Of a stretch of 32,000 nucleotides of DNA, positions 2,649-29,840 are shown one piece after another; within the stretch, counting starts at the first letter, position 1, and every line of letters begins with the position of its first letter. A program made the translations under genes and the position numbers. Where the stretch lies: assembly GCF_000146505.1 (NCBI RefSeq), contig NC_017448.1:2400001-2432000 (forward strand). Direction: 5' to 3'. The stretch is from Fibrobacter succinogenes subsp. succinogenes S85. GTDB taxonomy: Bacteria; Fibrobacterota; Fibrobacteria; Fibrobacterales; Fibrobacteraceae. Below the pieces are notes generated by a model. That model was not told the DNA's origin. It saw only the letters and a list, made by a program, of their open reading frames with translations, and ran no database searches.

Positions 2649-3512
2649 ATGATGAAATCGGTTACTGAATACAAAAACTATCGCGAGTATATTCTCGACT
2701 ACTACAAGGAACGCAAGCGTTGTTCTGCGTTTACGTGGCGAGAATTTGCGAAGGTGGCTGGATTTGCGTCGGGTTCGTACCTGAAACTTGTATGTGATGG
2801 CAAGACGCGTCTTCGCGAAGAAGGAGCGAAAAAGACTGCACTTGCAATGGGCTTACTTGGCTATGAATTGGATTACTTCGTTTTGCTGGTACGTTATGAG
2901 GGAGCAAAGACGGAACAGGAAAAGAAGAAGTGCTTTGAGGAAATGCAGGCGCTTGGTGAAGCGAATCGCGTGAAAATTCTCGGCAGCGAGATGTACACTT
3001 ACTACGAGACTTGGAAACATTCTGTGGTCCGCGAATTGGCTGTGGCTATGCCGGGCGCAAAGCCGAACGAAATTGCCAAAGTGTGCAAGCCTGCGATTTC
3101 TGCTGCGGATGTCAGTGATAGCTTGCGCTTTTTGCTCAAGGCTGGGCTTTTGACTCGCGATATCAAAGGGAATTATCACCAGACGAGTACTTCGCTTTCG
3201 ACGGGAAATTTGAATGTGGTGGCCGTGGCGGTGCATTCGCTGTTGCGCCAGATGGGCGAGTTTGCGCTTGATGCTTTGGATAAATTGCCTATTTCGGAAC
3301 GCCACTTTAGTGGCATCACGATGGGCGTGACGGCAGAAAGCTATGCAAAAATTGTGGATGAAATTGCTGCGTTCCGCAAGCGCATAGTGTCGATTGTTTC
3401 TGCCGACAAAAAGATTGAAAAAGTTTGCCGCTTGAATATGCAACTTTTCCCGCTGACGGAAAAGATTGAATATGGCGATATGAATGTGTTATCAAAAAAT
3501 AGAGGGGAGTGA
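2649..3512 (+). CDS. TIGR02147-type protein (Fibrobacter 'second' paralogous family; putative HTH DNA-binding protein), cassette 1
   Basis: 287-aa soluble ORF. The N-terminus (YKNYREYILDYYKERKRCSAFTWREFAKVAGFASGSYLKLVCDGK) is paralogous to ORFs 6142-6996, 14721-15575 and 20347-21219. The stop codon overlaps the next gene (GTGA at 3509-3512). Confidence 0.8.
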   Translation: MMKSVTEYKNYREYILDYYKERKRCSAFTWREFAKVAGFASGSYLKLVCDGKTRLREEGAKKTALAMGLLGYELDYFVLLVRYEGAKTEQEKKKCFEEMQALGEANRVKILGSEMYTYYETWKHSVVRELAVAMPGAKPNEIAKVCKPAISAADVSDSLRFLLKAGLLTRDIKGNYHQTSTSLSTGNLNVVAVAVHSLLRQMGEFALDALDKLPISERHFSGITMGVTAESYAKIVDEIAAFRKRIVSIVSADKKIEKVCRLNMQLFPLTEKIEYGDMNVLSKNRGE

Positions 3513-5905
3513 CTAGAATTATGCTCACTAAAACAATGACAAAATGGAATCTTTTGGCGGCTCTTGTATTTGGGACGTCTTTTTGGGCTTGTTCTGGTGA
3601 TAAGACGGCCGGTACGGACGAACAGAGCGAAGGCCTTTACGCCATCAAGAACTTGGATATTGCAGGCATTTCCCAAAAGGGCCCGTTCGTGAAGGGCTCC
3701 GCGGTGACGGTGCAGGGAATCAACTGCAAGACAATGGAATTCACGGATAAAGTTTTTGAGGGTGAAGTCAAAAATAACATGGGTGAATTTGTTGTTGAAA
3801 AGGTGAACTTGTCTACGACTTGTGCTGTTGTTGAAGTGACAGGCGAATACCGTAGCGAAATGACGGGGAAAAAAGTCTCGGATAAAATGACGCTCCGTGC
3901 GTTAACGAATCTTAAGGATCGTACGCATGTGAATGTCAACTTGCTTACGAACTTGGAATACGAGCGCGTGATGTACTATGTGACTGAAAAGGGCAAGACT
4001 TTCGACGAGGCTAAGGAATTGGCTGAAAGGGAAGTGCTTGCCGCATTCGGGATGGCTGGTGAATCGGCCGAATTTGAAGATTTGGATATTTTTGGAACAA
4101 GCGATGCGGATGCGACGCTCCTTGCTATAAGCGTGTTGATGCAAGGCGATGCCGATGTGAAAACGCTTGCTAAACGTCTGGATAAATTCAATGATTCCTT
4201 TGCAGAAAGCGGCAAGTGGAACGATGATGATACGAAAAAAGCGATTACCGACTGGATTGCGAATGCCGTGGCTAAAGCCGTGATGGATTCCATTCGTAAG
4301 AATATGGAAAATTGGGGATTCGCAAATGAAGTTCCCGATTTTGAAAAGGCCATTGAAGAAATCAATGTGGCACAGGAAATCCCCGAAGGGTGGAGCTGGG
4401 ATGTGCCCAAGGAAGCTCGCCTGAATCCGAATATCAAATATGATTCGATAATCGACTCGCGCGACAAGAAAGTTTACAAGGTCGTGAAAATTGAAGTGCC
4501 AGACTCGAATTATTCGCAGGTGTGGATGGCTGAAAACCTGAACTATGCCGATAGCGTCAAGACTCCGAGCTTGAAGGGCGGCAACTGGTGCTACAATAAT
4601 GAAGAAAAAAATTGCAAGGTGGGCGGTCGTTATTACAGCTGGGCGGCGGCAATTGACTCTGTTGCCTTGGCGAATGATTCGAAGGAACCGTTGGTTTGCG
4701 GCTATGGTAAAAAGTGCGGACTTGATCGCGCTGTGCAGGGAATTTGTCCTGATGGCTGGCATTTGCCGTCAATCTATGAATGGGGGTTGTTGAGCGTGGC
4801 GTTAGGATCTGGCGGCGTAGCTGGCGAGCCTCTCAAGGCCTTGACCGGGTGGGACTACGCCGGAACGCCTGACAATAACGGTACGGATCTTTACGGCTTT
4901 GCCGCACTCCCGACCGGAAGAAAAATTTCTGCAACTAGTTGGCAAAAGGTGGGCTCGGATGTTTATTACTGGAGCGCCACCGAATACAGTGCCGATCAAG
5001 GCCGGTATTTAAATATAAACAACATTTATACCAATTCTTATACGTATCAGAATAGCAAGTCTTATGGACAAAGTGTCCGTTGCGTCAAAGGGGATCCTTC
5101 GACTGCGCCGGTAAGGCCTTCTTCAAGTTCTGTAGATACCAATGGATGGAGCTGGGATGTGCCCAAGGAAGCTCGCCTGAATCCGAAAATCAAATATGAC
5201 TCGATGGTCGACCCGCGTGACAAGCAAGTGTATAAGGTTGTGAAAATTGACGTGTCAGACACGAATTATTCGCAGGTGTGGATGGCAGAAAACTTGAACT
5301 ATGCCGATAGCGTCAAGACTCCGAGCTTGAAGGGCCGCAACTGGTGCTACAACAATGATGAAAAGAATTGCAATGTGGGCGGTCGTTATTACAGCTGGGC
5401 GGCGGCAATTGACTCTGTTGCCTTGGCGAACGATCCGAAGGAACCGTTGGATTGCGGTTATGGCAAGACGTGCGGACTCAATCATAGTGTTCAGGGAATT
5501 TGCCCGGATGGTTGGCATTTGCCGACACTCCGTGAATGGAGTTTGTTGTGTGAGGCTATAGGGGATTACAGTACGTGTGGAAAGCCTCTCAAGGCTTTGA
5601 GCGGGTGGGACTATGCCGGAACGCCTAACAATAACGGTACTGATAAATATGGCTTTGCATCACTTCCGACCGGAAGAAGGCTTTCTGCAACTAGTTGGGA
5701 AAAGGTGGGTTCGGATGTTTATTACTGGAGCGCCACCGAATACAGTGCCGATGATGGTCGATATTTCAATATAAACAACATTTATACTCAAACTTATACG
5801 TATCAGAATAGCAAGTCTTATGGACAAAGTGTCCGCTGCGTTAAAGGGGATCCTTCGACTGCACCGGTAAGACCTTCTTCAAGTTCTAGCAAAAGCGATG
5901 AGTAA
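3509..5905 (+). CDS. Lipoprotein with the shared N-terminal module and two FISUMP (Fib_succ_major) domains
   Basis: Signal peptide with lipobox (FGTSFWAC|SGD). The motif WMAENLNY...GRYY.WAAA...CPDGWHLP..EW..L...YGF..LP.G...SVRCVKGD occurs twice. The ORF opens at GTG 3509, but ATG 3521 with GGGGAG 11 nt upstream is the more likely start. Confidence 0.85.
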   Translation: MTRIMLTKTMTKWNLLAALVFGTSFWACSGDKTAGTDEQSEGLYAIKNLDIAGISQKGPFVKGSAVTVQGINCKTMEFTDKVFEGEVKNNMGEFVVEKVNLSTTCAVVEVTGEYRSEMTGKKVSDKMTLRALTNLKDRTHVNVNLLTNLEYERVMYYVTEKGKTFDEAKELAEREVLAAFGMAGESAEFEDLDIFGTSDADATLLAISVLMQGDADVKTLAKRLDKFNDSFAESGKWNDDDTKKAITDWIANAVAKAVMDSIRKNMENWGFANEVPDFEKAIEEINVAQEIPEGWSWDVPKEARLNPNIKYDSIIDSRDKKVYKVVKIEVPDSNYSQVWMAENLNYADSVKTPSLKGGNWCYNNEEKNCKVGGRYYSWAAAIDSVALANDSKEPLVCGYGKKCGLDRAVQGICPDGWHLPSIYEWGLLSVALGSGGVAGEPLKALTGWDYAGTPDNNGTDLYGFAALPTGRKISATSWQKVGSDVYYWSATEYSADQGRYLNINNIYTNSYTYQNSKSYGQSVRCVKGDPSTAPVRPSSSSVDTNGWSWDVPKEARLNPKIKYDSMVDPRDKQVYKVVKIDVSDTNYSQVWMAENLNYADSVKTPSLKGRNWCYNNDEKNCNVGGRYYSWAAAIDSVALANDPKEPLDCGYGKTCGLNHSVQGICPDGWHLPTLREWSLLCEAIGDYSTCGKPLKALSGWDYAGTPNNNGTDKYGFASLPTGRRLSATSWEKVGSDVYYWSATEYSADDGRYFNINNIYTQTYTYQNSKSYGQSVRCVKGDPSTAPVRPSSSSSKSDE
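4391..5887 (+). repeat. Intragenic tandem duplication (two 741-nt units, 756-nt period, in frame)
   Basis: Unit 1 (4391-5131) and unit 2 (5147-5887) align without indels. They share exact runs of 41 nt (from 4391 and 5147) and 56 nt (4619-4674 and 5375-5430). Confidence 0.9.
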
Positions 5906-5931: not shown

Positions 5932-5963
5932 CCCCGTGGCCAATATGCCGCGGGGATTTTTTT
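5932..5963 (+). terminator. Rho-independent terminator ending cassette 1
   Basis: Stem CCCCGTGGC (5932-5940) pairs with GCCGCGGGG (5947-5955) across a 6-nt loop. A 7-T run (5957-5963) follows. Confidence 0.75.
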
Positions 5964-5984
5964 GGATTCTAGTGACTTTGATTT

Positions 5985-6011
5985 GTCATTCCCGCGAAGG
6001 CGGGAATCTCC
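5985..6011. repeat. REP-like hairpin element GTCATTCCCGC-GAAG-GCGGGAATCTCC (intergenic copy)
   Basis: Perfect 8-bp stem ATTCCCGC/GCGGGAAT with a GAAG loop. The same arms and flanks recur at 16310-16337 and 17075-17102 inside a CDS. Confidence 0.7.
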
Positions 6012-6141
6012 ATGTTCCAGGAATATGTATGTCATGTTCTAAAATGCTAAAAATTCTAAAATTTATGCAAAAATGGTAAAATCTGTGCAAAAATGCCATT
6101 TTTATGTTCTAGATTTAATGCAATTGAGTATATTTGTACTT
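6012..6141 (+). promoter_or_regulatory. Conserved upstream control region of cassette 2
   Basis: The region contains the near-palindrome ATGTTCCAGGAATAT (6012-6026), TGGTAAAAT (6074-6082), the perfect 7+1+7 palindrome AAAAATG-C-CATTTTT (6089-6103) and TATATTTG (6129-6136) ending 5 nt before ATG 6142. It aligns without gaps to 14591-14720. Confidence 0.5.
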
Positions 6142-6996
6142 ATGAAGGATATCGTTAAATATACGGATTACCGCAAGTACATTCAAGATTACTACGACGA
6201 ACGTAAACGCACTTCGGCGTTTTCTTGGCATATGTTTGCACAAAAGGCGGGTTTCTCGTCGGATGTTTATTTGAAGTATGTTTGCGAAGGAAAGAAAAAC
6301 CTGAGTGTTGGTTCTGCGGGTTCTGTTGCAAGTGCCATGGGCCTTGTCGGCTTCGAACAGACTTATTTCGTTTTGATGGTCTCGTACGCTCATGCAAAGG
6401 ATGACAAGACAAAACGTGCCGCGTTCGAGGAACGTTGTGCGTTAGCGCTTGCCCACAAGATGCGTGTTCTCGGTGATGAAGAATTCAATTACTTTAAATC
6501 GTGGAAAAATTCTGTGATTCGAGAATTGGCTCCGCACATGCCTGGTGCAAAGCCTCTCGAAATGGCGCGAGCTTGCAAACAAAAGATTTCTGCAACGGAA
6601 GTTTCCGAGACGCTTGATTTTTTGGTGAAGGCAAAGCTTTTAAAGAAGGACAGAAACGGAAACTACCAGCAAACGGATAAGGCCATCAGGATGGCGCCTG
6701 TAGAGGCGGTACCTTTGGCTGCTCGCGATTTGCAGCGCCAAATGGGAGAGTTCGCGATTCAGTCGCTGGATTTGCCTCTTTCTGAGCGAATGATGTCGGG
6801 CTATACGCTTGGCCTTACGCGTCGTGCTTACGAACGGATAAAAAAGGAAGTGGATGAGTTTTATCGGCGCATTGTCGCGATTGCGACAGAAGAAGATGAA
6901 ACGGAGCGTGTTTATCGCTTGAATGTGCAACTGTTCCCGATGAGCGAATGGTTGAATAAAAGTGGAACAGTTTTGAATAAGGATGAGAGAAAATGA
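6142..6996 (+). CDS. TIGR02147-type putative HTH protein, cassette 2
   Basis: The ORF is open from 6073, but the paralogues all begin MK(D/E/A)IV(K/E)YTDYRK, so ATG 6142 is taken as the start. The stop overlaps the next start (ATGA at 6993-6996). Confidence 0.8.
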   Translation: MKDIVKYTDYRKYIQDYYDERKRTSAFSWHMFAQKAGFSSDVYLKYVCEGKKNLSVGSAGSVASAMGLVGFEQTYFVLMVSYAHAKDDKTKRAAFEERCALALAHKMRVLGDEEFNYFKSWKNSVIRELAPHMPGAKPLEMARACKQKISATEVSETLDFLVKAKLLKKDRNGNYQQTDKAIRMAPVEAVPLAARDLQRQMGEFAIQSLDLPLSERMMSGYTLGLTRRAYERIKKEVDEFYRRIVAIATEEDETERVYRLNVQLFPMSEWLNKSGTVLNKDERK

Positions 6997-14590: not shown

Positions 14591-14720
14591 GTATTCCTGG
14601 AATACGGACTTTGTGTTCTGAATTGCTAAAAATTGTGTAATTTCTGCAAATATGGTAAAATTTGGCTAAAAACGCCATTTTTGTATTCCAAAAACTGCGG
14701 AAATGTCTATATTTGTACAC
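14591..14720 (+). promoter_or_regulatory. Conserved upstream control region of cassette 3
   Basis: The region contains the perfect 15-nt palindrome GTATTCCTGGAATAC (14591-14605), TGGTAAAAT (14653-14661), AAAAACGCCATTTTT (14668-14682) and TATATTTG (14708-14715) ending 5 nt before ATG 14721. There is no Shine-Dalgarno. Confidence 0.5.
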
Positions 14721-15575
14721 ATGAAGGAGATTGTAGAATACACAGACTACCGCAAGTTCATCCAGGATTACTACGATGAACGCAAGCGCAGCTCGGCTTT
14801 TACGTGGCGCGAGTTTGCCCGTGATGCGGGATTTTCGTCGGCTGTGTATTTGAAGTACGTTTGCGAGGGCAAAAAGAATCTGAGTGTAGGGTCGGCGGGA
14901 TCCGTTGCTGCGGCGATGGGGCTTGCCGGGTTCGAACAGACGTACTTTGTCTTGATGGTTTCGTATGCGCATGCGAAAGATGACAAGGCGAGACGTGCCG
15001 CGTTCGAAGAACGCTGTGCGCTCGCGCATGCCCACAAGGTACGTGTGCTCGGGAACGAGGAATTCGATTATTTCAAGTCGTGGAAGAATCCGGTATTGCG
15101 CGAGATTGCTCCGCACATGCCTGGTGCCAAGCCTCTTGAAATGGCTCGTAAGTGCAAGCCGCAGATTTCTGCGGCGGAGGTCTCCGAGACGCTTGACTTT
15201 TTGGTGCGCGCGAAGCTCTTGAAGAAGGACAAGAGCGGAAACTACGAACAGACGGACAAGTCGTTATCGATGGGGTCGGTCGATGCAGTGCCTGTGGCGG
15301 CTCGCGATATGCAACGTGAAATGGGGGAATTTGCGGTGAAGGCTTTGGACTTGCCGCTTTCGGAACGTGACATGTCGGGGCTTACCATGGGGCTCACGCG
15401 CCGTGCTTACGAAAAAATCAGGAAAGAAATCGCGGATTTTCGCCGCCGCATTGTGGCGATTGCGAGTGAGGATGACGAGACGGAACAGGTGTACCGCCTG
15501 AATTTGCAGTTGTTCCCGCTGAGCGAACGTCTTGACGATTGCGATGATAAAAATAAAGGTGTTGGGAAAAAGTAA
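14721..15575 (+). CDS. TIGR02147-type putative HTH protein, cassette 3
   Basis: The ORF is open from 14703. The start is set to ATG 14721 (MKEIVEYTDYRKFIQDYYDERKR) by alignment with the paralogues. Confidence 0.8.
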   Translation: MKEIVEYTDYRKFIQDYYDERKRSSAFTWREFARDAGFSSAVYLKYVCEGKKNLSVGSAGSVAAAMGLAGFEQTYFVLMVSYAHAKDDKARRAAFEERCALAHAHKVRVLGNEEFDYFKSWKNPVLREIAPHMPGAKPLEMARKCKPQISAAEVSETLDFLVRAKLLKKDKSGNYEQTDKSLSMGSVDAVPVAARDMQREMGEFAVKALDLPLSERDMSGLTMGLTRRAYEKIRKEIADFRRRIVAIASEDDETEQVYRLNLQLFPLSERLDDCDDKNKGVGKK

Positions 15576-15583
15576 GGAGAAAA

Positions 15584-17680
15584 GTGATGATTAATTGGCG
15601 CAGGATGCTGAATGTTCGCGCGACCATTGTGCTCGCTCTTGCTGTGCTGTTGACGTCGTGTTCCGACGACAAGGTGGCGGGCGGTACTACGGAAGATGCG
15701 GGGCTTGCCATCAAGAATTTGGACGTGGCAGGGCTTGCGCAAAAGGGGCCGTTTGTCAAAGGCTCTGTCGTGACTGTGCAGGGCGTGGATTGCAAGACGA
15801 TGGATTTCACGGACGAAGTTTTCGAAGGCTCCGTGATAAACAATGATGGTGAATATGTTGTTGAAAATGTGAATTTGTCTGTTGCTTGTGCTTTGCTTGA
15901 AGTGACGGGCTATTACCTCAATGAAAATACCGGTAAAAAATCAACGGGTGAAATCTCGCTCCATACGCTGACGGATTTGGGCGACCGCAAGAATGTGAAC
16001 ATCAACGTGTTTACGGAACTGGAATACAAGCGCGTGATGATCCTCAACACTGAAAAGAAGGTGTCTTTTGCGGATGCTAAAAAACAGGCTGAAAAAGAAG
16101 TGCTTGCTGCGTTTGATGTGAAAGCGGAAAATGGCGATTTCTCCTTGTTCGAAGACTTGGACGTCTTTGAAAAGGGTAAAGAGAATGTTGCGCTCCATGA
16201 TGTGAGCGTGATGTTGCAGGCGGATTTGGACGCTACGGAACTCGCAGAACGCTTGGAAAACATTGCCGCCGACATTGCGAAAGATGGCAAATGGGATGAT
16301 CGCGATTCTGTCATTCCCTCCTCGAGCGGGAATCTCCCCTCGTCCAGCAGCTCCTCCGTCATCGCTAGCGAAGCGAAGCAATCTAGTAACAGTATAAAAG
16401 ACTCTTACCTGAATCCAAACATTGCTTATGGCGAAATGACCGACTCCCGTGACGGACAAGTTTACAAGATCGTAAAGATTGGGGAGCAAGTTTGGATGGC
16501 GCAAAATTTGAACTATGAAGCGGCGACCAGTTATTGCTACAATGATGGTGCGGAATATTGCGAAAAGTATGGCCGGTTGTACACCTGGGCCGCGTCAGTG
16601 GACAAGTCGGAGAAAGAGTGCGGACTCGGAAACGAATGCAATCTGGCGTCTGGGAATATTCGTGGTATTTGTCCCGATGGCTGGTATTTGCCCAGCGGAG
16701 CTGATTTTGAGACTTTAATCAAGGCTGTGGGTGGCGAAAAAGGTGCCGGCGCTAAACTGAAGTCTTTGAGTGGCTGGCGTGACGATGGTGGTGTAAGTGG
16801 CAACGGCACTGACACATTCGGATTCTCGGCACTGCCTGTTGGCGTCGGTATGCAGGGCTTCTACGGTGAGGGGTACGGTGCGCAATTCTGGGGCTCTACG
16901 GAATGCGGTAGCGCGAGTGCTGCTGATAAAGGTTACAGCTGTGCGTCTATAATGAGCTTGGACTATGACGATGTCGACGTGAGCTTGAGGAGCTACGCTG
17001 CTAAGGACTTCAAGTTCTCTGTCCGCTGCATCAAGGAAGATGGTGAATTTGTTCCGGTGTCCAGCAACTCCTCTGTCATTCCCGCCTCGAGCGGGAATCT
17101 CCCCTCATCTAGTTCAGTTACCTTAGCAACGCCGTGCAAGACTGAAACAGAAGACAATTGTGAATATGGAACTTTGGCTGATTCCCGTGACGGACAAACC
17201 TACAAGACGGTGAAAATCGGTGATCAGGTTTGGATGGCGGAAAACTTGAACTATGAAAATGGAAATAGTATGTGCTACAGTGATGATAGTACTAAATGCG
17301 GTAAGTCTGGTCGTATTTACACTTGGGATGCTGCAAAAGAGGTTTGTCCGAGTGGATGGCATTTGCCTGATACAACGGAATGGGTTGCTTTATTCTCTGC
17401 GGTGGGAACTCGGGGAATGGCTGGTCGGAATCTCAAGTCGACCACTGGATGGGCTGATAATGGAAATGGCGTTGATGCATATGGTTTTTCTGTATTGCCT
17501 ATTGCTTTTTGGGATGATCCAGATTTCATTGCTAGGGATGAGTATGCGTTGTTCTGGAGCTCTACAGAAGTGGACGCCGATAAAGCTGAATTGCAACATT
17601 TTTACATGAGTTATGATTCGGTAATCCACGGTTCTTTTTCTAAGAAAATGGCCGTCTCTATCCGTTGTCTCAAAGATTAG
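15584..17680 (+). CDS. Lipoprotein with the shared N-terminal module and two FISUMP domains
   Basis: An AAGGAG Shine-Dalgarno precedes GTG 15584 / ATG 15587. Lipobox LLTSC|SDD. There are two canonical FISUMP domains, each preceded by a Ser-rich linker that carries the hairpin element. Confidence 0.85.
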   Translation: MMINWRRMLNVRATIVLALAVLLTSCSDDKVAGGTTEDAGLAIKNLDVAGLAQKGPFVKGSVVTVQGVDCKTMDFTDEVFEGSVINNDGEYVVENVNLSVACALLEVTGYYLNENTGKKSTGEISLHTLTDLGDRKNVNINVFTELEYKRVMILNTEKKVSFADAKKQAEKEVLAAFDVKAENGDFSLFEDLDVFEKGKENVALHDVSVMLQADLDATELAERLENIAADIAKDGKWDDRDSVIPSSSGNLPSSSSSSVIASEAKQSSNSIKDSYLNPNIAYGEMTDSRDGQVYKIVKIGEQVWMAQNLNYEAATSYCYNDGAEYCEKYGRLYTWAASVDKSEKECGLGNECNLASGNIRGICPDGWYLPSGADFETLIKAVGGEKGAGAKLKSLSGWRDDGGVSGNGTDTFGFSALPVGVGMQGFYGEGYGAQFWGSTECGSASAADKGYSCASIMSLDYDDVDVSLRSYAAKDFKFSVRCIKEDGEFVPVSSNSSVIPASSGNLPSSSSVTLATPCKTETEDNCEYGTLADSRDGQTYKTVKIGDQVWMAENLNYENGNSMCYSDDSTKCGKSGRIYTWDAAKEVCPSGWHLPDTTEWVALFSAVGTRGMAGRNLKSTTGWADNGNGVDAYGFSVLPIAFWDDPDFIARDEYALFWSSTEVDADKAELQHFYMSYDSVIHGSFSKKMAVSIRCLKD
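16310..16337 (+). repeat. REP-like hairpin element inside coding linker 1 (GTCATTCCCTC-CTCGA-GCGGGAATCTCC)
   Basis: 27 of 28 nt match the copy at 17075-17102. The arms and flanks match the intergenic copy at 5985-6011. In frame it reads V-I-P-S-S-S-G-N-L. Confidence 0.7.
16358..16383 (+). repeat. Second hairpin-type element in the same linker (GTCATCGCTAGCGAAGCGAAGCAATC)
   Basis: It has the same GTCAT...AATC frame with a different, imperfect stem (ATCGCT/AGCAAT). It reads VIASEAKQS. Confidence 0.4.
17075..17102 (+). repeat. REP-like hairpin element inside coding linker 2 (GTCATTCCCGC-CTCGA-GCGGGAATCTCC)
   Basis: Perfect 8-bp stem ATTCCCGC/GCGGGAAT with a 5-nt loop. It lies 765 nt (255 codons) downstream of the first CDS copy, in the same frame. 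Confidence 0.7.
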
Positions 17681-17705: not shown

Positions 17706-20147
17706 GTGAAGAAATTCATAAGTAAATCAATTACTTTGTTGATGGCAATTGCTTCGGCGGGGATGCTCTCGGCTTGCCTGGATGATAAAGTTGCAGGCGG
17801 CGTCACGGAAGATGCAGGGCTCGCCATTAAGGACTTGAATGTGGCGGGCTTGGCGCAAAAGGGCCCGTTTGTCAAGGGATCTGTAGTGACTGTGCAGGGT
17901 GTTGACTGCAAGACGATGAAGTTCACGGAAGAAGAATTTACAGGCGAAGTCAAGAGCAACAAGGGCGACTTTGACGTTGACGATGTGAATCTCTCTGCGA
18001 CTTGCGCGTTGTTCTCTGTGTCCGGCTATTACATGAATGAATTTACCGGTGAGAAATCTTCGGATAAGTTGACGCTCCATGCGATTACGGATTTGAAAGA
18101 CCGCAAACATGTGAACATCAATGTGCTTACGGAATTGGAATACGAGCGCGTGATGAAGCTTGTCTCCAAAGAGAAAATGTCCTTTGACGATGCTAAGATG
18201 CAGGCAGAAAAGGAAATCCTAGCCGCGTTAGGTTTGGTGGATCGCTTTGAGTCGTTCGAAGGCTTGAGCATTTATGAAAAGGGCGACGGGAATGCTGCCC
18301 TCCTTGCGACGAGTGTAATGCTGCAATCGGATTTGGATGCTGAAAAGCTCACGGACCGTTTGGATGGCTTTGCTTCGTCCATCGCGGAAAGTGGCGAATG
18401 GGACGATGAAAAGACGAAAAAGAAAATGACGGATTGGGCGGATTCTGCAAAGTCCAGGGGCAAATACGAAACGATTCGCGACAATCTTGAAAAATGGAGC
18501 GACTCCGATGAAATCCCCGACTTTGAAAAAGTCGTCGATGAAATAAATAAGGATGCCAAGGAAACTACTCAGAAAATCCCTGAAGAGTGGAGCTGGGATG
18601 TACCGCAGTCCGCTCGCCTGAATCCGAATATCAAATACGATACGATGATTGACCCGCGCGATAAACAAGTCTATAAGGTCGTGAAAATTGAAGTGAAGGA
18701 GCATGATTATTCGCAGGTGTGGATGGCAGAAAACCTGAACTATGCCGATAGCGTCAAGACGCCGAGCTTGAAAGGCCAAAACTGGTGCTACAATAATGAT
18801 GAGAAAAATTGTAAGGTAAGCGGTCGCTATTACACTTGGGCGGCGGCGATAGACTCTGTGGCTTTGGCAAACGATTCAAAGAATCCGCTGAATTGCGGTT
18901 ATGGCAAGACGTGTGGAATTAATCGCGGAGTGCAGGGAATTTGCCCTGACGGCTGGCATTTGCCGACGCTCCATGAATGGGGATTGTTGGGCGTAGCTCT
19001 GGGGAACGCTGGCGTGGCCGGAGATAGCCTCAAGGCGCTGACTGGCTGGGATTACGCCGGAACGGCTGACAATAACGGCGTAGATGCCTATGGATTTGCG
19101 GCGCTTCCGACCGGAAGGATGGTTTCTACATCTAGCTGGAGCAATGTTGGTTCTAATGTTTATTATTGGAGTTCCGAAGAGGATGGTACGTATGAAGCGC
19201 GATATTCGAATATAAACAACATTTATACTAAATTCTATTTGTTCCAAGGTTCAAAAAAATATGGACAGAGTGTACGTTGCATCAAGGGTGATCCTTCGAC
19301 TGCAGCGATTAAATCTTCTTCAAGTTCTAGTGTTGGCGAAACGAAGTCTAGCAGCAGTTCTGCAAAATTGAGTAGCAGTGTGGTTGTGTCCAGCAGTAGT
19401 CAAGTAAAAATGAGTAGCAGTTCTGTAGTTCCTTCCGGCTGGAGCTGGGACGTGCCTAAGGAATTGCGCTTTAATCCGAATATCAAATACGACTCAATGG
19501 TTGACCCGCGTGACAAGCGTGTGTATAAAGTTGTGAAAATCGAAGTGAAAGAAAGGGATTATTCAAAGGTGTGGATGGCGGAGAACTTGAACTACGATGA
19601 TAGCGTCAAGACGCCGAGTTTGAAGGGCAATAGCTGGTGCTACCACGATACCACGAAATATTGCGAGGTGAGCGGTCGCTATTACACTTGGGCTGCGGCG
19701 ATTGATTCAGTTGCGCTGGCAAATGATCCTAAGGATCCGTTGAATTGCGGTTATGGCAAGACTTGTGGACTTAATCGCCAGATACAGGGAATTTGTCCTG
19801 ACGGTTGGCACTTGCCGGTTCGTGATGAATGGGGCTGGTTGAGCGTGTACTTAGGGAATGCGGGCGTGGCCGGCGATACCCTCAAGGCTTTGACCGGATG
19901 GGATTATGCCGGAACAGAAGACAATAACGGTGTGGATGCCTATGGATTTACGGCACTCCCGACTGGACGAAGAATCTCTGAAACTAACTGGAGCAACATT
20001 GGTTCTAATGTCTATTATTGGATCTCTGAAGAAGAGGATGCGTATGAGGCTCAGTATTCGAATATAAACAACATTTATACCAAATTCTATTTGTACCAAG
20101 GCTCAAAAACTTATGGACAAAGTGTCCGCTGCGTGAAGGATGAGTAA
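17706..20147 (+). CDS. Lipoprotein with the shared N-terminal module and two FISUMP domains of the 'WSWDVP' subfamily
   Basis: GTG start preceded by AAGGAGAAGGA. Lipobox MLSAC|LDD. The two domains are close paralogues of those in 3509-5905 and are separated by a Ser-rich linker. Confidence 0.85.
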   Translation: MKKFISKSITLLMAIASAGMLSACLDDKVAGGVTEDAGLAIKDLNVAGLAQKGPFVKGSVVTVQGVDCKTMKFTEEEFTGEVKSNKGDFDVDDVNLSATCALFSVSGYYMNEFTGEKSSDKLTLHAITDLKDRKHVNINVLTELEYERVMKLVSKEKMSFDDAKMQAEKEILAALGLVDRFESFEGLSIYEKGDGNAALLATSVMLQSDLDAEKLTDRLDGFASSIAESGEWDDEKTKKKMTDWADSAKSRGKYETIRDNLEKWSDSDEIPDFEKVVDEINKDAKETTQKIPEEWSWDVPQSARLNPNIKYDTMIDPRDKQVYKVVKIEVKEHDYSQVWMAENLNYADSVKTPSLKGQNWCYNNDEKNCKVSGRYYTWAAAIDSVALANDSKNPLNCGYGKTCGINRGVQGICPDGWHLPTLHEWGLLGVALGNAGVAGDSLKALTGWDYAGTADNNGVDAYGFAALPTGRMVSTSSWSNVGSNVYYWSSEEDGTYEARYSNINNIYTKFYLFQGSKKYGQSVRCIKGDPSTAAIKSSSSSSVGETKSSSSSAKLSSSVVVSSSSQVKMSSSSVVPSGWSWDVPKELRFNPNIKYDSMVDPRDKRVYKVVKIEVKERDYSKVWMAENLNYDDSVKTPSLKGNSWCYHDTTKYCEVSGRYYTWAAAIDSVALANDPKDPLNCGYGKTCGLNRQIQGICPDGWHLPVRDEWGWLSVYLGNAGVAGDTLKALTGWDYAGTEDNNGVDAYGFTALPTGRRISETNWSNIGSNVYYWISEEEDAYEAQYSNINNIYTKFYLYQGSKTYGQSVRCVKDE
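18588..20141 (+). repeat. Intragenic duplication of the WSWDVP-type FISUMP unit (852-nt period)
   Basis: TGGAGCTGGG starts a unit at 18588 and again at 19440. The encoded units are collinear and highly similar. Confidence 0.8.
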
Positions 20148-20346: not shown

Positions 20347-21219
20347 ATGAAGGCGATTGTTGAATATACAGATTATCGCAAGTTCATTCAGGATTATTAT
20401 GATGAACGCAAACGCGACTCCGCTTTAACTTGGCGCGAGTTTGCTCAGAAAGCCGGTTTTGCATCGGCCATTTTTCTGAAGTATGTTTGTGAAGGCAAAA
20501 AGAATCTGAGTATCAGCGCTGCGGGTTCCGTTGCAGATGCCATGGGGCTTGTCGGTTTTGAAAGAACGTACTTTGTTCTGATGGTGATGTACGCCCATGC
20601 CAAAGGGGACGAGGCCAAAATGGCGGCGTTCGAAAAATGCTGTGCCTTGGCGAGGGCGCATAAGGTTCGTGTGCTCGGTAGCGAAGAATTTGATTATTAC
20701 AGGTCTTGGAAAAATCCGTTGATTCGTGAACTCGCTCCGCACATGCCGGGAGCAATGCCTTCTGAAATGGCGCGTGCTTGCAGGCCGAAAATCTCTACAG
20801 CCGAAGTTGCTGAAACGCTTGATTTTTTGGAAGATGCAAATCTCCTAAAAAAAGACCAGGAAGGAAATTATGTGCAGACGGACAAGTCCATATCGATGGG
20901 CTCCGTGGAAGCGGTTCCGCTTGCGGCGCGTGATTTGCAACGCCAGATGGGCGAGCTTGCCGTAAGGGCTATAAATTTCCCGCTTGCGGAGCGCTCCATG
21001 TCGGGTGTTGTCTTGGGGCTTACGCAGGAGTCCTATGAGCGTGTCAAGAAGGAACTTTTGGAATGCCGTCGCCGCATTATCGCCATTGCTACGGAAAGTA
21101 ACAAGACGCAGCGTGTGTACCGCTTGAACTTGCAGTTGTTCCCGTTGAGCGAAGATCTGGATGTTGCTAACGATGCTTTAAAAAATAAGGAGGAGAGGAA
21201 TGATAAGAAACGAGTCTAG
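20347..21219 (+). CDS. TIGR02147-type putative HTH protein, cassette 4
   Basis: 290-aa ORF starting MKAIVEYTDYRKFIQDYYDERKR. It overlaps the next gene by 20 nt. Confidence 0.8.
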   Translation: MKAIVEYTDYRKFIQDYYDERKRDSALTWREFAQKAGFASAIFLKYVCEGKKNLSISAAGSVADAMGLVGFERTYFVLMVMYAHAKGDEAKMAAFEKCCALARAHKVRVLGSEEFDYYRSWKNPLIRELAPHMPGAMPSEMARACRPKISTAEVAETLDFLEDANLLKKDQEGNYVQTDKSISMGSVEAVPLAARDLQRQMGELAVRAINFPLAERSMSGVVLGLTQESYERVKKELLECRRRIIAIATESNKTQRVYRLNLQLFPLSEDLDVANDALKNKEERNDKKRV

Positions 21220-23425
21220 ATTTTTTGGGGGAGTTTTTGCTTTCGCATTGGCGTTTGCCTTTGTGTCCATGTTTTCGGCATGCTCTGAAAAGGTTGCGGG
21301 TGGATCTTCTGATGATTCGGGTATCTACGCTGTCAAGGATTTGGATGTGGCAGGCGTTTCGCAGAAGGGGCCGTTTGTCAAGAGTTCTGCGGTGACGGTG
21401 CAGGGTATTGATTGCAAAACGGTGGAACTAACTCATGAAATTTTTGAAGGTTCGGTCAAGAGCGACAAAGGCGACTTTGGCGTTGATGATGTGAACCTTT
21501 CGGTGTCTTGCGCTTTGTTCGAAGTAACCGGTCACTACTTCAATGAAGTGACTGGTAAAAAGTCGGCGGGCGAGGTAACGCTCCATGCGCTCTCGGACTT
21601 GAGCGACCGCAAGCATGTGAATATCAACATGCTCACGGAACTTGAATACAGGCGTGTGATGCATCTCGTGTCAGAAGAGCATATGGATTTTGCGGATGCA
21701 AAGAAACAGGCCGAGAAGGAAGTCCTTGCTGCTTTCGGTATCAAGGGTGACTTTGATAATTTTGAAGACTTGACCATTTTTGAAGGTGGTGATGGAAATG
21801 CGGCGCTCCTTGCTGTAAGCGTGATGATGCAGGCGGAAACGGATGAAGCGGGACTTGCGAAGCGTATAGATAAGTTTGCAGATTCGTTTGCGGAAACCGG
21901 CAAGTGGAAGGATGACGAAACGAAAGCGGCAATTGAAAGTTGGCAGATTGATGCTGCGGCCAATGGTACTCTTGATTCAATTCGCAAGAATGTTGAAAGT
22001 TTGGGCTATGCCGATGTGGTTCCCGCTTTTGAAAAGTTCGTCGAAGCTTTCCAATACTCTTCCAGTGTTACACCGCGGTCAAGTAGTTCGTCAAAGGTCC
22101 CTGAGCCTGCCGAAGAGTCCAGCAGCAGTTCCGCAAAGGCGGATGCCGGCAGTGAATACGATGCTTCAGCAAATACGCTGAAGGATTTGCGCGATGGTCA
22201 AATTTACAGAACCGTTAAAATCGCTGGTCAGGTATGGATGGCAGAGAACCTGAACTACGAAGTGGAAAATAGTTCCTGTTTCAAAAATTCCGCAGATAGC
22301 TGTGCCAAGTATGGTCGCCTATACACCTTGCCTATTCAGGGAGTTTGCCCGAGCGGTTGGCACTTGCCTAGTGGTGTTGAATTAAATGCGCTGGTCACGG
22401 AAGCGGGTGGTCCAATTGTTGCAGGTTTGCATCTCAAGTCACGGACGGATTGGTACAGAACGGTAAGAGGCACGGATGCCTTGGGGTTTGCCGCACTCCC
22501 TGCAGGCAGGTGGAGCGAAGATAACGGTTTCGTTGGTGGTGTTGCTGCTTTTTGGAGTTCTAGTGAACGCGATAGTATTCATGTGTACGCTATGCACTTG
22601 TCCGATTATAGGGCGGATATTACCTTCAGTGATAAGGACAACGTTGCGTATTCGGTTCGTTGTCTAAAGAATAATGATTCAGTAGAAAGTAGTTCTAGCG
22701 GCTCTGAGGCTTCTAGCAGCAGCGTTAAGATTGCGTTGGCCTGTAAAATGAAAAATACGGATTATTGCAAATATGAAACCTTGATTGATGAGCGCGATGG
22801 CCAAACATATAAGACCATAAAAATCGGCACCCAGACGTGGATGGCTGAAAACTTGAATTATGCGTCCTTGCAACCTACGGATAGATTGGATTCAACCAGT
22901 TTCTGTTACGAGAATGAACCCTTTAATTGTGAAAAGGATGGTCGCCTGTATTTATGGAGTGCGGTCATGGATAGCGCTGCGACATGGAGTGATAATGGTA
23001 AAGGCTGCGGTTATGGTGTTGTCTGTTCTCCGACTTTCCCTGTACGTGGCGTTTGCCCGGCTGGCTGGCATGTGCCAAATCGTGATGAAGTGATGGAATT
23101 GTTAGATGCTGTTGGTGGAGTAGATGTTGCTGGAGATATGCTCATATCTGAATATTCAGGTTGTATAGATGAAGTGGATCTTTATGGCTTTTCGTTCCGC
23201 CCTACAGGTCGCAAGAGAAGTGAAGGGTACTATGACGATGATGGTGAGTATGGGTATATGTGGACTACAACGGATGACTATTAGAATTCGGACGAGTTTT
23301 TTCTCAAAAATAATGAACCGTTTGAACTCGTAGCGGCATTTTCTCTGTCGAAAGCAGGCGGTAATCTTGGTATGCACGGATATTACAAAAATACGGGCTA
23401 CCCTGTCCGCTGCATCAAGGACTAG
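21200..23425 (+). pseudogene. Lipoprotein (shared N-module plus two FISUMP domains) interrupted by an in-frame TAG at 23282-23284
   Basis: AGGAGG Shine-Dalgarno and lipobox MFSAC|SEK. The ORF stops at 23284, but the same frame continues for 46 sense codons to a second TAG at 23423-23425. That tail ends with the family signature GYPVRCIKD. Confidence 0.7.
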
Positions 23426-29682: not shown

Positions 29683-29713
29683 AAAAAAGACCTTGCTTTC
29701 GCAAGGTCTTTTT
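29683..29713. terminator. Bidirectional hairpin terminator between the phosphatase gene and tRNA-His
   Basis: AAAAAAGACCTTGC-tttc-GCAAGGTCTTTTT has an 8-bp GC-containing stem flanked by an A-run and a T-run. Confidence 0.75.
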
Positions 29714-29715
29714 CG

Positions 29716-29790
29716 GGTGGATGACCGGACTCGAACCGGCAACATCCAGAATCACAATCTGGGACTCTAACCAATTGAGCTACATCCACC
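29716..29790 (-). tRNA. tRNA-His (anticodon GTG) with encoded G-1; CCA not encoded
   Basis: The reverse complement reads G-GTGGATG-TA-GCTC-AATTGGTTA-GAGT-C-CCAGA-TTGTGAT-TCTGG-ATGTT-GCCGG-TTCGAGT-CCGGT-CATCCAC-C. The cloverleaf was folded by hand. The anticodon loop TTGTGAT gives GTG. An extra 5' G lies opposite the discriminator C, which is typical of tRNA-His. Confidence 0.9.
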
Positions 29791-29809: not shown

Positions 29810-29840
29810 AAAAAAGCCATCCCAAATTTCAAGGGATGGC
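29810..29840 (-). terminator. Rho-independent terminator of the small CCCH-motif gene (minus strand)
   Basis: GCCATCCC (29816-29823) pairs with GGGATGGC (29833-29840) across a 9-nt loop. On the minus strand TTTTTT (29815-29810) follows. Confidence 0.65.

Follow-up and report, generated by a model that had tools for sequence, protein, structure and literature searches.

The DNA analysed here (the window) is a 32,000-nt stretch of the Fibrobacter succinogenes subsp. succinogenes S85 chromosome (NC_017448.1, positions 2,400,001 to 2,432,000), and all positions are given within it. The window holds three copies of a short hairpin repeat, GTCATTCCC(G/T)C-loop-GCGGGAATCTCC, one of them intergenic and two in frame within linkers of a single FISUMP lipoprotein gene (Table 1). 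Three cassettes were recognised in the region, each opened by a DUF4423/TIGR02147 gene, behind which lie one to three lipoprotein genes. The lipoproteins have a paralogous N-terminal domain of ~240 aa in common, together with a single FISUMP (PF09603) domain or two. The gene with the two coding copies likely starts at the ATG at 15587, and the resulting 697-aa product was recovered unchanged from the S85 chromosome and from three independent read-set assemblies. Its two FISUMP domains show 49% protein identity to each other. In the translation of this coding sequence (CDS), both copies are read in the same frame as VIP(S/A)SSGNLPSSS inside Ser-rich linkers, just as a first, sequence-only reading of the stretch had proposed.

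Table 1. Hairpin repeats and associated features in the S85 window
Feature	Position	Strand	Remarks
Intrinsic-terminator-like hairpin and T-run of the upstream FISUMP gene	5932-5965	+	context only
Intergenic hairpin repeat TGTCATTCCCGCGAAGGCGGGAATCTCC	5984-6011	+	8-bp stem, GAAG loop, core GCGAAGC
Host lipoprotein gene	15584-17680	+	N-terminal domain and two FISUMP (PF09603) domains (Pfam)
Coding island 1, linker 1	16307-16341	+	hairpin 16310-16337, read S-VIPSSSGNLP-S, stem weakened by G>T
Second hairpin-family element GTCATCGCTAGCGAAGCGAAGCAATC	16358-16383	+	read as VIASEAKQS
Coding island 2, linker 2	17072-17106	+	hairpin 17075-17102, perfect 8-bp stem, loop CTCGA, read S-VIPASSGNLP-S
Decayed copy of third widespread repeat (GTCCCTGAGCCTGCCGAAG...)	22097-22120	+	read VPEPAEE; Ser-rich linker of paralogous gene 21200-23284

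The pattern GTCATTCCCNC-N3-8-GCGGGAATC matched the window exactly three times, at 5985, 16310 and 17075 and always on the plus strand, against no match in 100 dinucleotide-preserving shuffles of the window, and the sequences and coordinates of the three copies were borne out. The sequence-only reading had described identical arms around different loops. The loops indeed differ, being GAAG in the intergenic copy and CTCGA in both coding copies, but the 5' arm of copy 16310 carries a G>T change, and thus the stems of the three copies are not fully identical. When folded as single-stranded DNA (ssDNA), copies 5985 and 17075 formed 8-bp hairpins of -8.9 kcal/mol (z = -3.2) and -8.7 kcal/mol (z = -4.9), respectively, whereas copy 16310, with its mismatched stem, did not form the expected hairpin (z = -1.45). 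The coding copies are direct repeats 765 nt apart and the intergenic copy is a singlet. Without gaps, the island shared by both coding copies, originally put at 37 nt with one mismatch, measured 35 nt with one mismatch or 38 nt with two. The sequence around it had been called unrelated, which is correct for the upstream side but not for the downstream flanks, these being paralogous and no closer.

A role as terminator was ruled out for the intergenic copy, since it lacks a T-run and follows a canonical terminator at a distance of 30 nt; the copy lies between this terminator and the promoter region of the next gene, which begins ~60 nt further on. The heptamer GCGAAGC in its centre, also present at or near the centre of the element at 16358-16383, is the sequence of the unusually stable DNA mini-hairpin d(GCGAAGC), and this stability fits an ssDNA rather than an RNA role. 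DUF4423/TIGR02147 paralogues were located at 2649-3512, 6073-6996, 14703-15575 and 20347-21219, each 5' of a FISUMP lipoprotein block. At least three of these genes have a conserved upstream region in common (6015, 14594 and 20220), and the intergenic hairpin is positioned directly 5' of one such region.

Hairpins of this kind have been studied in Neisseria, where the Neisseria Transformation Sequence (NTS), CGTCATTCCCGCGMAVGCGGGAATCYRG, is part of a broader group of hairpins, the Ssn-related motifs (SRM). Small GIY-YIG nucleases (Ssn; SsnA in Neisseria) bind and cut these hairpins exclusively as ssDNA (PMC11893778, Nat Commun 2025). According to the same study, cutting by SsnA depends most on the 3 nt upstream of the palindrome and binding on the C after it, and NTS hairpins cluster around variable surface-protein genes and are seldom intragenic (2% in N. 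meningitidis); Fibrobacter is not mentioned in its main text. The same Neisseria palindrome has been described as a REPIN tied to a RAYT (Bertels and Rainey, bioRxiv 10.1101/2021.07.10.451892). By its sequence, the Fibrobacter element is a hairpin repeat of the cross-phylum NTS/dRS3/SRM class, resembling repetitive extragenic palindromic (REP) sequences. It has the class layout, in which a GTC head is followed by a stem of 7-9 bp that starts with A(T/C), and a short loop leads into the complementary arm and a final C. A further hallmark of SRM is a gene for Ssn (single-domain GIY-YIG, cd10448) in the genome, often flanked by the motif.

The intergenic copy 5984-6011 fits the SRM pattern HGTCWY-N0-2-YYVSBRH-N0-5-WNVSBRG-N0-2-RNCYNB and is the only such match in the window, for which first-order Markov shuffles gave an expectation of 0.08. 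It agrees with the NTS consensus at 25 of 28 positions; its three mismatches, all in the outer flanks (positions 1, 27 and 28), place it outside the strict NTS definition of at most one mismatch to the consensus (PMC11893778). The two coding copies have one loop base more than the NTS and, together with the VIASEAKQS element, fall outside the strict SRM pattern, but the GTC head, the stem and the trailing C are retained in all of them. Hairpin formation as ssDNA, which belongs to the SRM definition, holds for copies 5985 and 17075. Common to the Fibrobacter element and NTS/SRM are thus the core GTCATTCCCGCG-A-A-G-GCGGGAATC-Y, the asymmetric GTC head and C tail, the ssDNA hairpin and the spread across phyla. 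The differences are that the NTS is rarely intragenic, whereas the Fibrobacter copies are concentrated in translated linker DNA, that the Fibrobacter coding copies have a 5-nt CTCGA loop, and that the tail of the element is TCTCC rather than YRG.

When species-representative genomes were scanned with GTCATTCCC-N7-10-GGGAATCTCC, the motif including the TCTCC tail was present in at least 120 genome stretches from many phyla; the matches listed come from Bacteroidota, Alpha- and Gammaproteobacteria, Chloroflexota, Rickettsiales and many Fibrobacter metagenome-assembled genomes (MAGs). It was also found in viral contigs of 41-68% GC. Hairpins framed by GTCAT and ATC had been described as scattered through many bacteria, which is correct: they are now named NTS/SRM and known as Ssn targets (PMC11893778).

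The element resembles REP/REPIN sequences in being a short palindromic many-copy repeat with genome-specific sequence families, and the core of the Neisseria REPIN, ATTCCCGCGCAGGCGGGAATC, is the same palindrome. REPs, however, are extragenic by definition and often form inverted doublets less than 130 bp apart, whereas in the window two of the three copies lie within a CDS and the copies are arranged as a singlet and as distant direct repeats; the Fibrobacter head also reads GTCA rather than GT[AG]G. Inverted doublets were seen, among the matches listed, only in some Bacteroidota loci (L015, L030 and L064). Palindromic repeats in frame within protein-coding genes are known as Rickettsia palindromic elements (RPE; reviewed in PMC10969869). 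In Fibrobacter, too, palindromic repeats are tolerated in frame in open reading frames (ORFs) and add peptide to permissive regions, in host genes confirmed by Pfam. RPEs, however, measure ~100-150 bp, are specific to Rickettsia, keep to a single conserved frame and are dispersed over genes that are unrelated to one another. The Fibrobacter hairpins, at 24-30 nt, are unrelated to them in sequence, use every frame and orientation and are concentrated in a single paralogous family, in its linkers. Neisseria intergenic mosaic elements (NIMEs) are dRS3-flanked arrays beside surface-protein genes and have been proposed as recombination substrates. They are of the same hairpin class and likewise form arrays next to variable envelope-protein genes, but they are intergenic, whereas the Fibrobacter arrays lie within the reading frame, between domains. 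No description of such hairpins inside coding linkers was found in the literature searched.

The distribution of the hairpins was surveyed in 21 Fibrobacter MAG loci and 80 metagenome loci (L-numbers denote individual loci, P-numbers homologues). Enrichment was calculated for ~500 kb (502 kb) of metagenomic loci, chosen solely by protein similarity to the S85 gene, in which GTCAT-stem-loop-stem-C hairpins were counted. These FISUMP-related loci contained 35 hairpins, compared with 1.75 expected from dinucleotide shuffles (~20x). Hairpins with zero, one and two stem mismatches numbered 24, 4 and 12, respectively, versus 0.1, 0.5 and 4.9 in shuffles, with a strong peak at zero. Ser-rich linker DNA had 5.0 hairpins per 10 kb, compared with 0.26 for the remaining ORF DNA and 0.58 outside ORFs. 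The linker DNA alone held 18 hairpins, compared with 0.14 when just the linker DNA was shuffled, which rules out an artefact of composition. A sister class of perfect hairpins in a GTC-ACCCC...GGGGT-C frame, with the head GTCAC instead of GTCAT, was observed at L158 862, L184 4484, L187 566, L157 3474 and L191 155, and the family is therefore broader than the counting rule.

The linker copies comprise at least 10 distinct self-complementary stems, occur in every frame and in both orientations, and are situated inside bona fide FISUMP lipoproteins. They are read as VIPASSGNLP, VIPDSVPGS, VIPGRDSES and VIPHPVAES in frame 0, as SSSTPVEDL in frame 1, as HSGLDPESS in frame 2 and as DAGTSAGMT in antisense. 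A single linker of ~60 aa (L146, 174-317) contains three different perfect hairpins, read as VIPDSVPGS (sense, frame 0), DGGSEAAMT (antisense) and SSSTPIEDP (sense, frame 1), and resembles an intergenic repeat array that is translated through. The asymmetric GTC head and C tail are carried by 26 of the 119 perfect hairpins of at least 8 bp in the FISUMP-related loci, and the GTC head belongs to one DNA strand and is retained even by antisense copies. Coding and intergenic copies of one locus, moreover, have the same stem variant (S85, L134 and L146). Given that all frames and the antisense orientation are used, that many stems occur and that coding and intergenic copies share stem variants, what is conserved is the palindrome in the DNA together with its flanks, the peptides being by-products.

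These data bear directly on the idea that the peptide VIPASSGNLPSSS itself is conserved, for example as a glycosylation or recognition motif, with the palindrome being coincidental. VIPxSSGNLP is present in 28 of the 120 best homologues, and in two more distant paralogues (L131 and L133) the peptide is kept, as VVPASSGNLP, despite synonymous change and although the stem is partly lost. However, the 24-nt core GTCATTCCCGC...GCGGGAATC is a cross-phylum non-coding repeat, every perfect copy uses GGG for Gly and CCC for Pro, and other palindromes in other linkers give unrelated peptides in other frames and orientations. By this diversity a peptide motif is effectively refuted, and we give it practically no credence.

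An action at the RNA level also appears highly improbable. An mRNA hairpin could slow ribosomes at domain boundaries and in this way aid co-translational folding or export; the hairpins do lie 10-25 codons past the end of one domain and ahead of the next, and palindromes fold as RNA too. On the other hand, the stems are no longer than 8 bp (about -9 kcal/mol as DNA), the element also occurs between genes and across phyla, and alleles without the 3' arm are frequent. The translational pause that had been suggested for these sites found no support: some copies are antisense, all three frames are used, and the asymmetric GTC...C flanks hold to one DNA strand, whichever strand is coding.

The history of the hairpins was followed in a DNA alignment of five orthologues of the S85 gene, and the examination of orthologous linkers that had been recommended revealed both deletion alleles and half elements. 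Short linker-1 alleles have a 33-nt deletion between CCTCG direct repeats, by which the loop and the 3' arm were removed. One orthologue has additional half elements GTCATTGCGAGC in both linkers and another an additional GTCATCCTCGACCGAAGGGAGGGGATCC segment (SSTEGRGSS), and the 5'-arm G/T polymorphism occurs at either linker, depending on the strain. No compensatory stem changes were present among the five aligned orthologues. In hairpin-2 codons of close orthologues, one synonymous change was counted in 40 comparisons versus 6.6-10% gene-wide, numbers too small to give power. In L131 and L133 the peptide persists beside a partly lost stem; conversely, in diverged paralogues (L099, L113, L130 and L136) hairpin 2 is identical and its 46-nt island 91-98% identical, with islands among such paralogues reaching 89-100% while the flanks are at background similarity. 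Such a pattern would be expected of an element that is copied or converted as DNA and then decays, and not of one under strict structural selection.

Comparison of whole homologues suggested that the modules of the lipoprotein were exchanged. Identities of the N-terminal domain, domain 1 and domain 2 to the S85 protein were, for example, 93, 90 and 44% in P0016, 91, 48 and 92% in P0011, and 56, 50 and 92% in P0022; such values show that the three modules have independent histories. In sliding nucleotide identity, the switch was located at most ~50 nt from hairpin 2 in all four mosaics examined (P0016, L130, P0011 and P0020), and in P0020 just a short patch of high identity is left around the hairpin. 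The linker-1 junction is further from its hairpin, ~150 nt downstream, within the first, conserved part of the FISUMP domain. The recovery of P0020 from separate assemblies, on seven contigs in all, speaks against a single chimera. No other stretch shared by these paralogues with near-identity is as long as the 35-50-nt islands, which makes the islands plausible substrates for homologous exchange. The recombination hotspot for domain shuffling that had been suggested is supported in part, by a coincidence of junctions with hairpin-bearing linkers that need not be causal.

Altogether, we consider it probable that SRM-type hairpins entered tolerant linker DNA, spread there with modules and by conversion, and act as passive homology patches for module exchange. 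Besides intergenic DNA, the family probably entered the DNA that encodes the Ser-rich linkers between the domains of FISUMP lipoproteins, and it would have done so through copying or conversion based on ssDNA. The insertions could persist because nearly any frame yields a harmless flexible peptide, VIPASSGNLP being in this case a by-product of the palindrome. The island may then move with the modules by duplication and gene conversion, and some lineages would lose it via point mutation or microhomology deletion. Where it is kept, it would offer ~35-50 nt of near-identity between diverged paralogues, in which recombination junctions could be resolved to give mosaic genes. The analysis shows which family the hairpins belong to, that they are enriched in linkers regardless of frame and orientation, and that they coincide with mosaic junctions. 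That the hairpins are mobile in this manner, and that the islands are a cause rather than mere markers of the junctions, is what we infer. A mobile or convertible hairpin that had colonised tolerant linker DNA was already among the explanations of the sequence-only reading. It is favoured by the presence of the same class in intergenic DNA of many phyla and of Fibrobacter, by the many stems found in all three frames and in antisense in excess over shuffled linkers, and by the deletion alleles and the near-identical islands beside unrelated flanks in paralogues.

Several observations weigh against this reading. No empty-site allele with clean insertion boundaries was found, nor did such a boundary emerge when the window's three paralogous intergenic regions were aligned; insertion is thus deduced and was not seen. 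In close orthologues, the hairpins change at about the rate of the gene without compensatory changes, which neither speaks for a constraint on the stem nor excludes it. Metagenome assemblies, in which repeats can give rise to chimeras, are the source of most of the mosaic genes, and junctions in linkers are also expected if only such recombinants fold. No gene for an Ssn-like GIY-YIG protein was detected by tblastn (queries from L052 and L014) in the window or in ~0.7 Mb of Fibrobacter loci, and inspection by eye of 77 ORFs beside Fibrobacter hairpins, for which Pfam was not run, revealed no obvious GIY-YIG or HUH proteins. In all DNA examined, single-domain GIY-YIG genes of the Ssn type were present only in L052 (1670-1966, Roseivirga spongicola) and L014 (5194-5472). 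A VIPAKAGI hairpin stands immediately before the L052 gene and two more copies lie ~1-1.5 kb from it, an arrangement that matches the published ssn-SRM association.

That no enzyme gene was detected in the Fibrobacter DNA searched also counts against a reading in which the hairpins are selected ssDNA signals for a host enzyme (an Ssn-like GIY-YIG protein, a RAYT or similar) that directs breaks or recombination to domain boundaries. In line with such signals, perfect stems are in strong excess over decayed ones, the stems covary while the GTC head and C tail are conserved, and these flanks are the positions critical for cutting and binding by SsnA (PMC11893778). Stem sharing between coding and intergenic copies of one genome, the junctions adjoining hairpin 2 in the four mosaics, and the clustering of the same class around variable surface-protein genes in Neisseria (PMC11893778) also agree with it. 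However, S85 copy 1 and several orthologues have uncompensated stem-breaking changes, the stem decays in L131 and L133 while the peptide is kept, deletion alleles without the 3' arm are common, and the linker-1 junction lies ~150 nt from its hairpin. We therefore regard selected signals as rather unlikely, although they deserve some weight. A more specific version would make the FISUMP domains exchangeable cassettes delimited by recombination signals with the GTC...C frame, at which a Fibrobacter enzyme of Ssn or RAYT type would direct breaks or strand exchange, a domain-level analogue of attC or NIME variation inside an ORF; we judge it unlikely. Integron attC sites are imperfect ssDNA hairpins bounding exchangeable cassettes. 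They are compared here for a possible way of working and not for family membership; the Fibrobacter hairpins have neither an integrase nor the conserved attC architecture and the cassettes would be protein domains.

The hairpins could also have come to lie in coding DNA without any insertion, if tandem FISUMP genes were fused by loss of a stop codon and a hairpin-bearing spacer became the linker. FISUMP genes do stand in tight tandem arrays, intergenic copies are found just 5' of FISUMP or DUF4423 genes, and the L146 linker with its three different hairpins is like an intergenic array. Linker 1, however, stands between the N-terminal domain and FISUMP domain 1, which were not seen as separate genes in the window; the hairpins are embedded in long runs of Ser codons, which intergenic spacers do not have; and in-frame copies also occur within unrelated genes (TaqI_C in L105 and HsdM in L121). 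Such a relic of gene fusion is, in our opinion, quite improbable.

REP- and NTS-type hairpins have been regarded as extragenic, with the NTS reported to be nearly absent from genes, while in Fibrobacter the same class is found in translated frames. Here hairpins form a good part of the inter-domain linkers in a large lipoprotein family and coincide with mosaic-gene junctions. Should the exchanges be driven by the islands, short hairpins, selfish or targeted by nucleases, would be a means by which bacterial proteins shuffle domains and acquire new linkers. Recurring protein 'motifs' of Fibrobacter, such as VIPASSGNLP, VIASEAKQS, SSSTPVEDL and VPEPAEG, are explained as translated DNA repeats, which bears on annotation and on the definition of domain families. 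For work on Ssn proteins, these genes offer a natural system in which intragenic hairpins can be tested.

The VIASEAKQS element had been noticed as a second GTCAT...AATC hairpin following the first coding copy, and it is real. It differs at two positions from the 26-mer GTCATTGCGAGCGAAGCGAAGCAATC, exact copies of which are present in 105 viral contigs and at other Fibrobacter loci, and on these matches it is assigned to a second widespread hairpin family. Orthologues of the S85 gene contain variant or half copies of it. A third widespread repeat (...CCTGAGCCTGCCGAAGG..., read VPEPAEG) is present in many FISUMP linkers and in other phyla; its copy in the window has a decayed 3' arm. In the form GTCCCTGAGCCTGCCGAAGG(G)..., read VPEPAEG or VPEPAEE, it was seen in Ser-rich FISUMP linkers of the window and of L140, L143, L148, L151, L158, L132, L161, L105 and L205, and loci of other phyla have PELVEG and PEPVEG versions.

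Some in-frame copies were observed outside the FISUMP family. In L105 (Fibrobacter sp. MAG RGIG5926, minus strand, ~806-880), a 418-aa restriction-modification enzyme ORF with a TaqI_C domain contains VIASEAKQS and then VIPAKAGIS, adjacent and in frame, and a VPEPAEG element further along; the Pfam match to TaqI_C ends just before the insert. Outside Fibrobacter, VIPAQAGIS is read in frame towards the C-terminus of a type I HsdM methylase of Thalassotalea litorea (L121, ~2744), and VIPGPDRES in a linker after an Amidase_3 domain in a rumen Bacteroidales (L042, ~3408, minus strand). An ORF of 963 codons in L025, likewise outside Fibrobacter, carries tandem arrays of whole and half hairpins.

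Elsewhere in the window, genes 3509-5905 and 17706-20147 each contain two near-identical tandem FISUMP domains (4373-4672 versus 5129-5428, 90%), and the domains of one gene are 75-85% identical to those of the other. This similarity points to recent duplication or gene conversion among paralogues, presumably independent of the hairpins. No Rfam family was matched at the hairpin sites; the only Rfam match in the window is a tRNA gene at 29716-29789 on the minus strand, which has terminator-like hairpins on either side (29684-29713 and 29816-29840).

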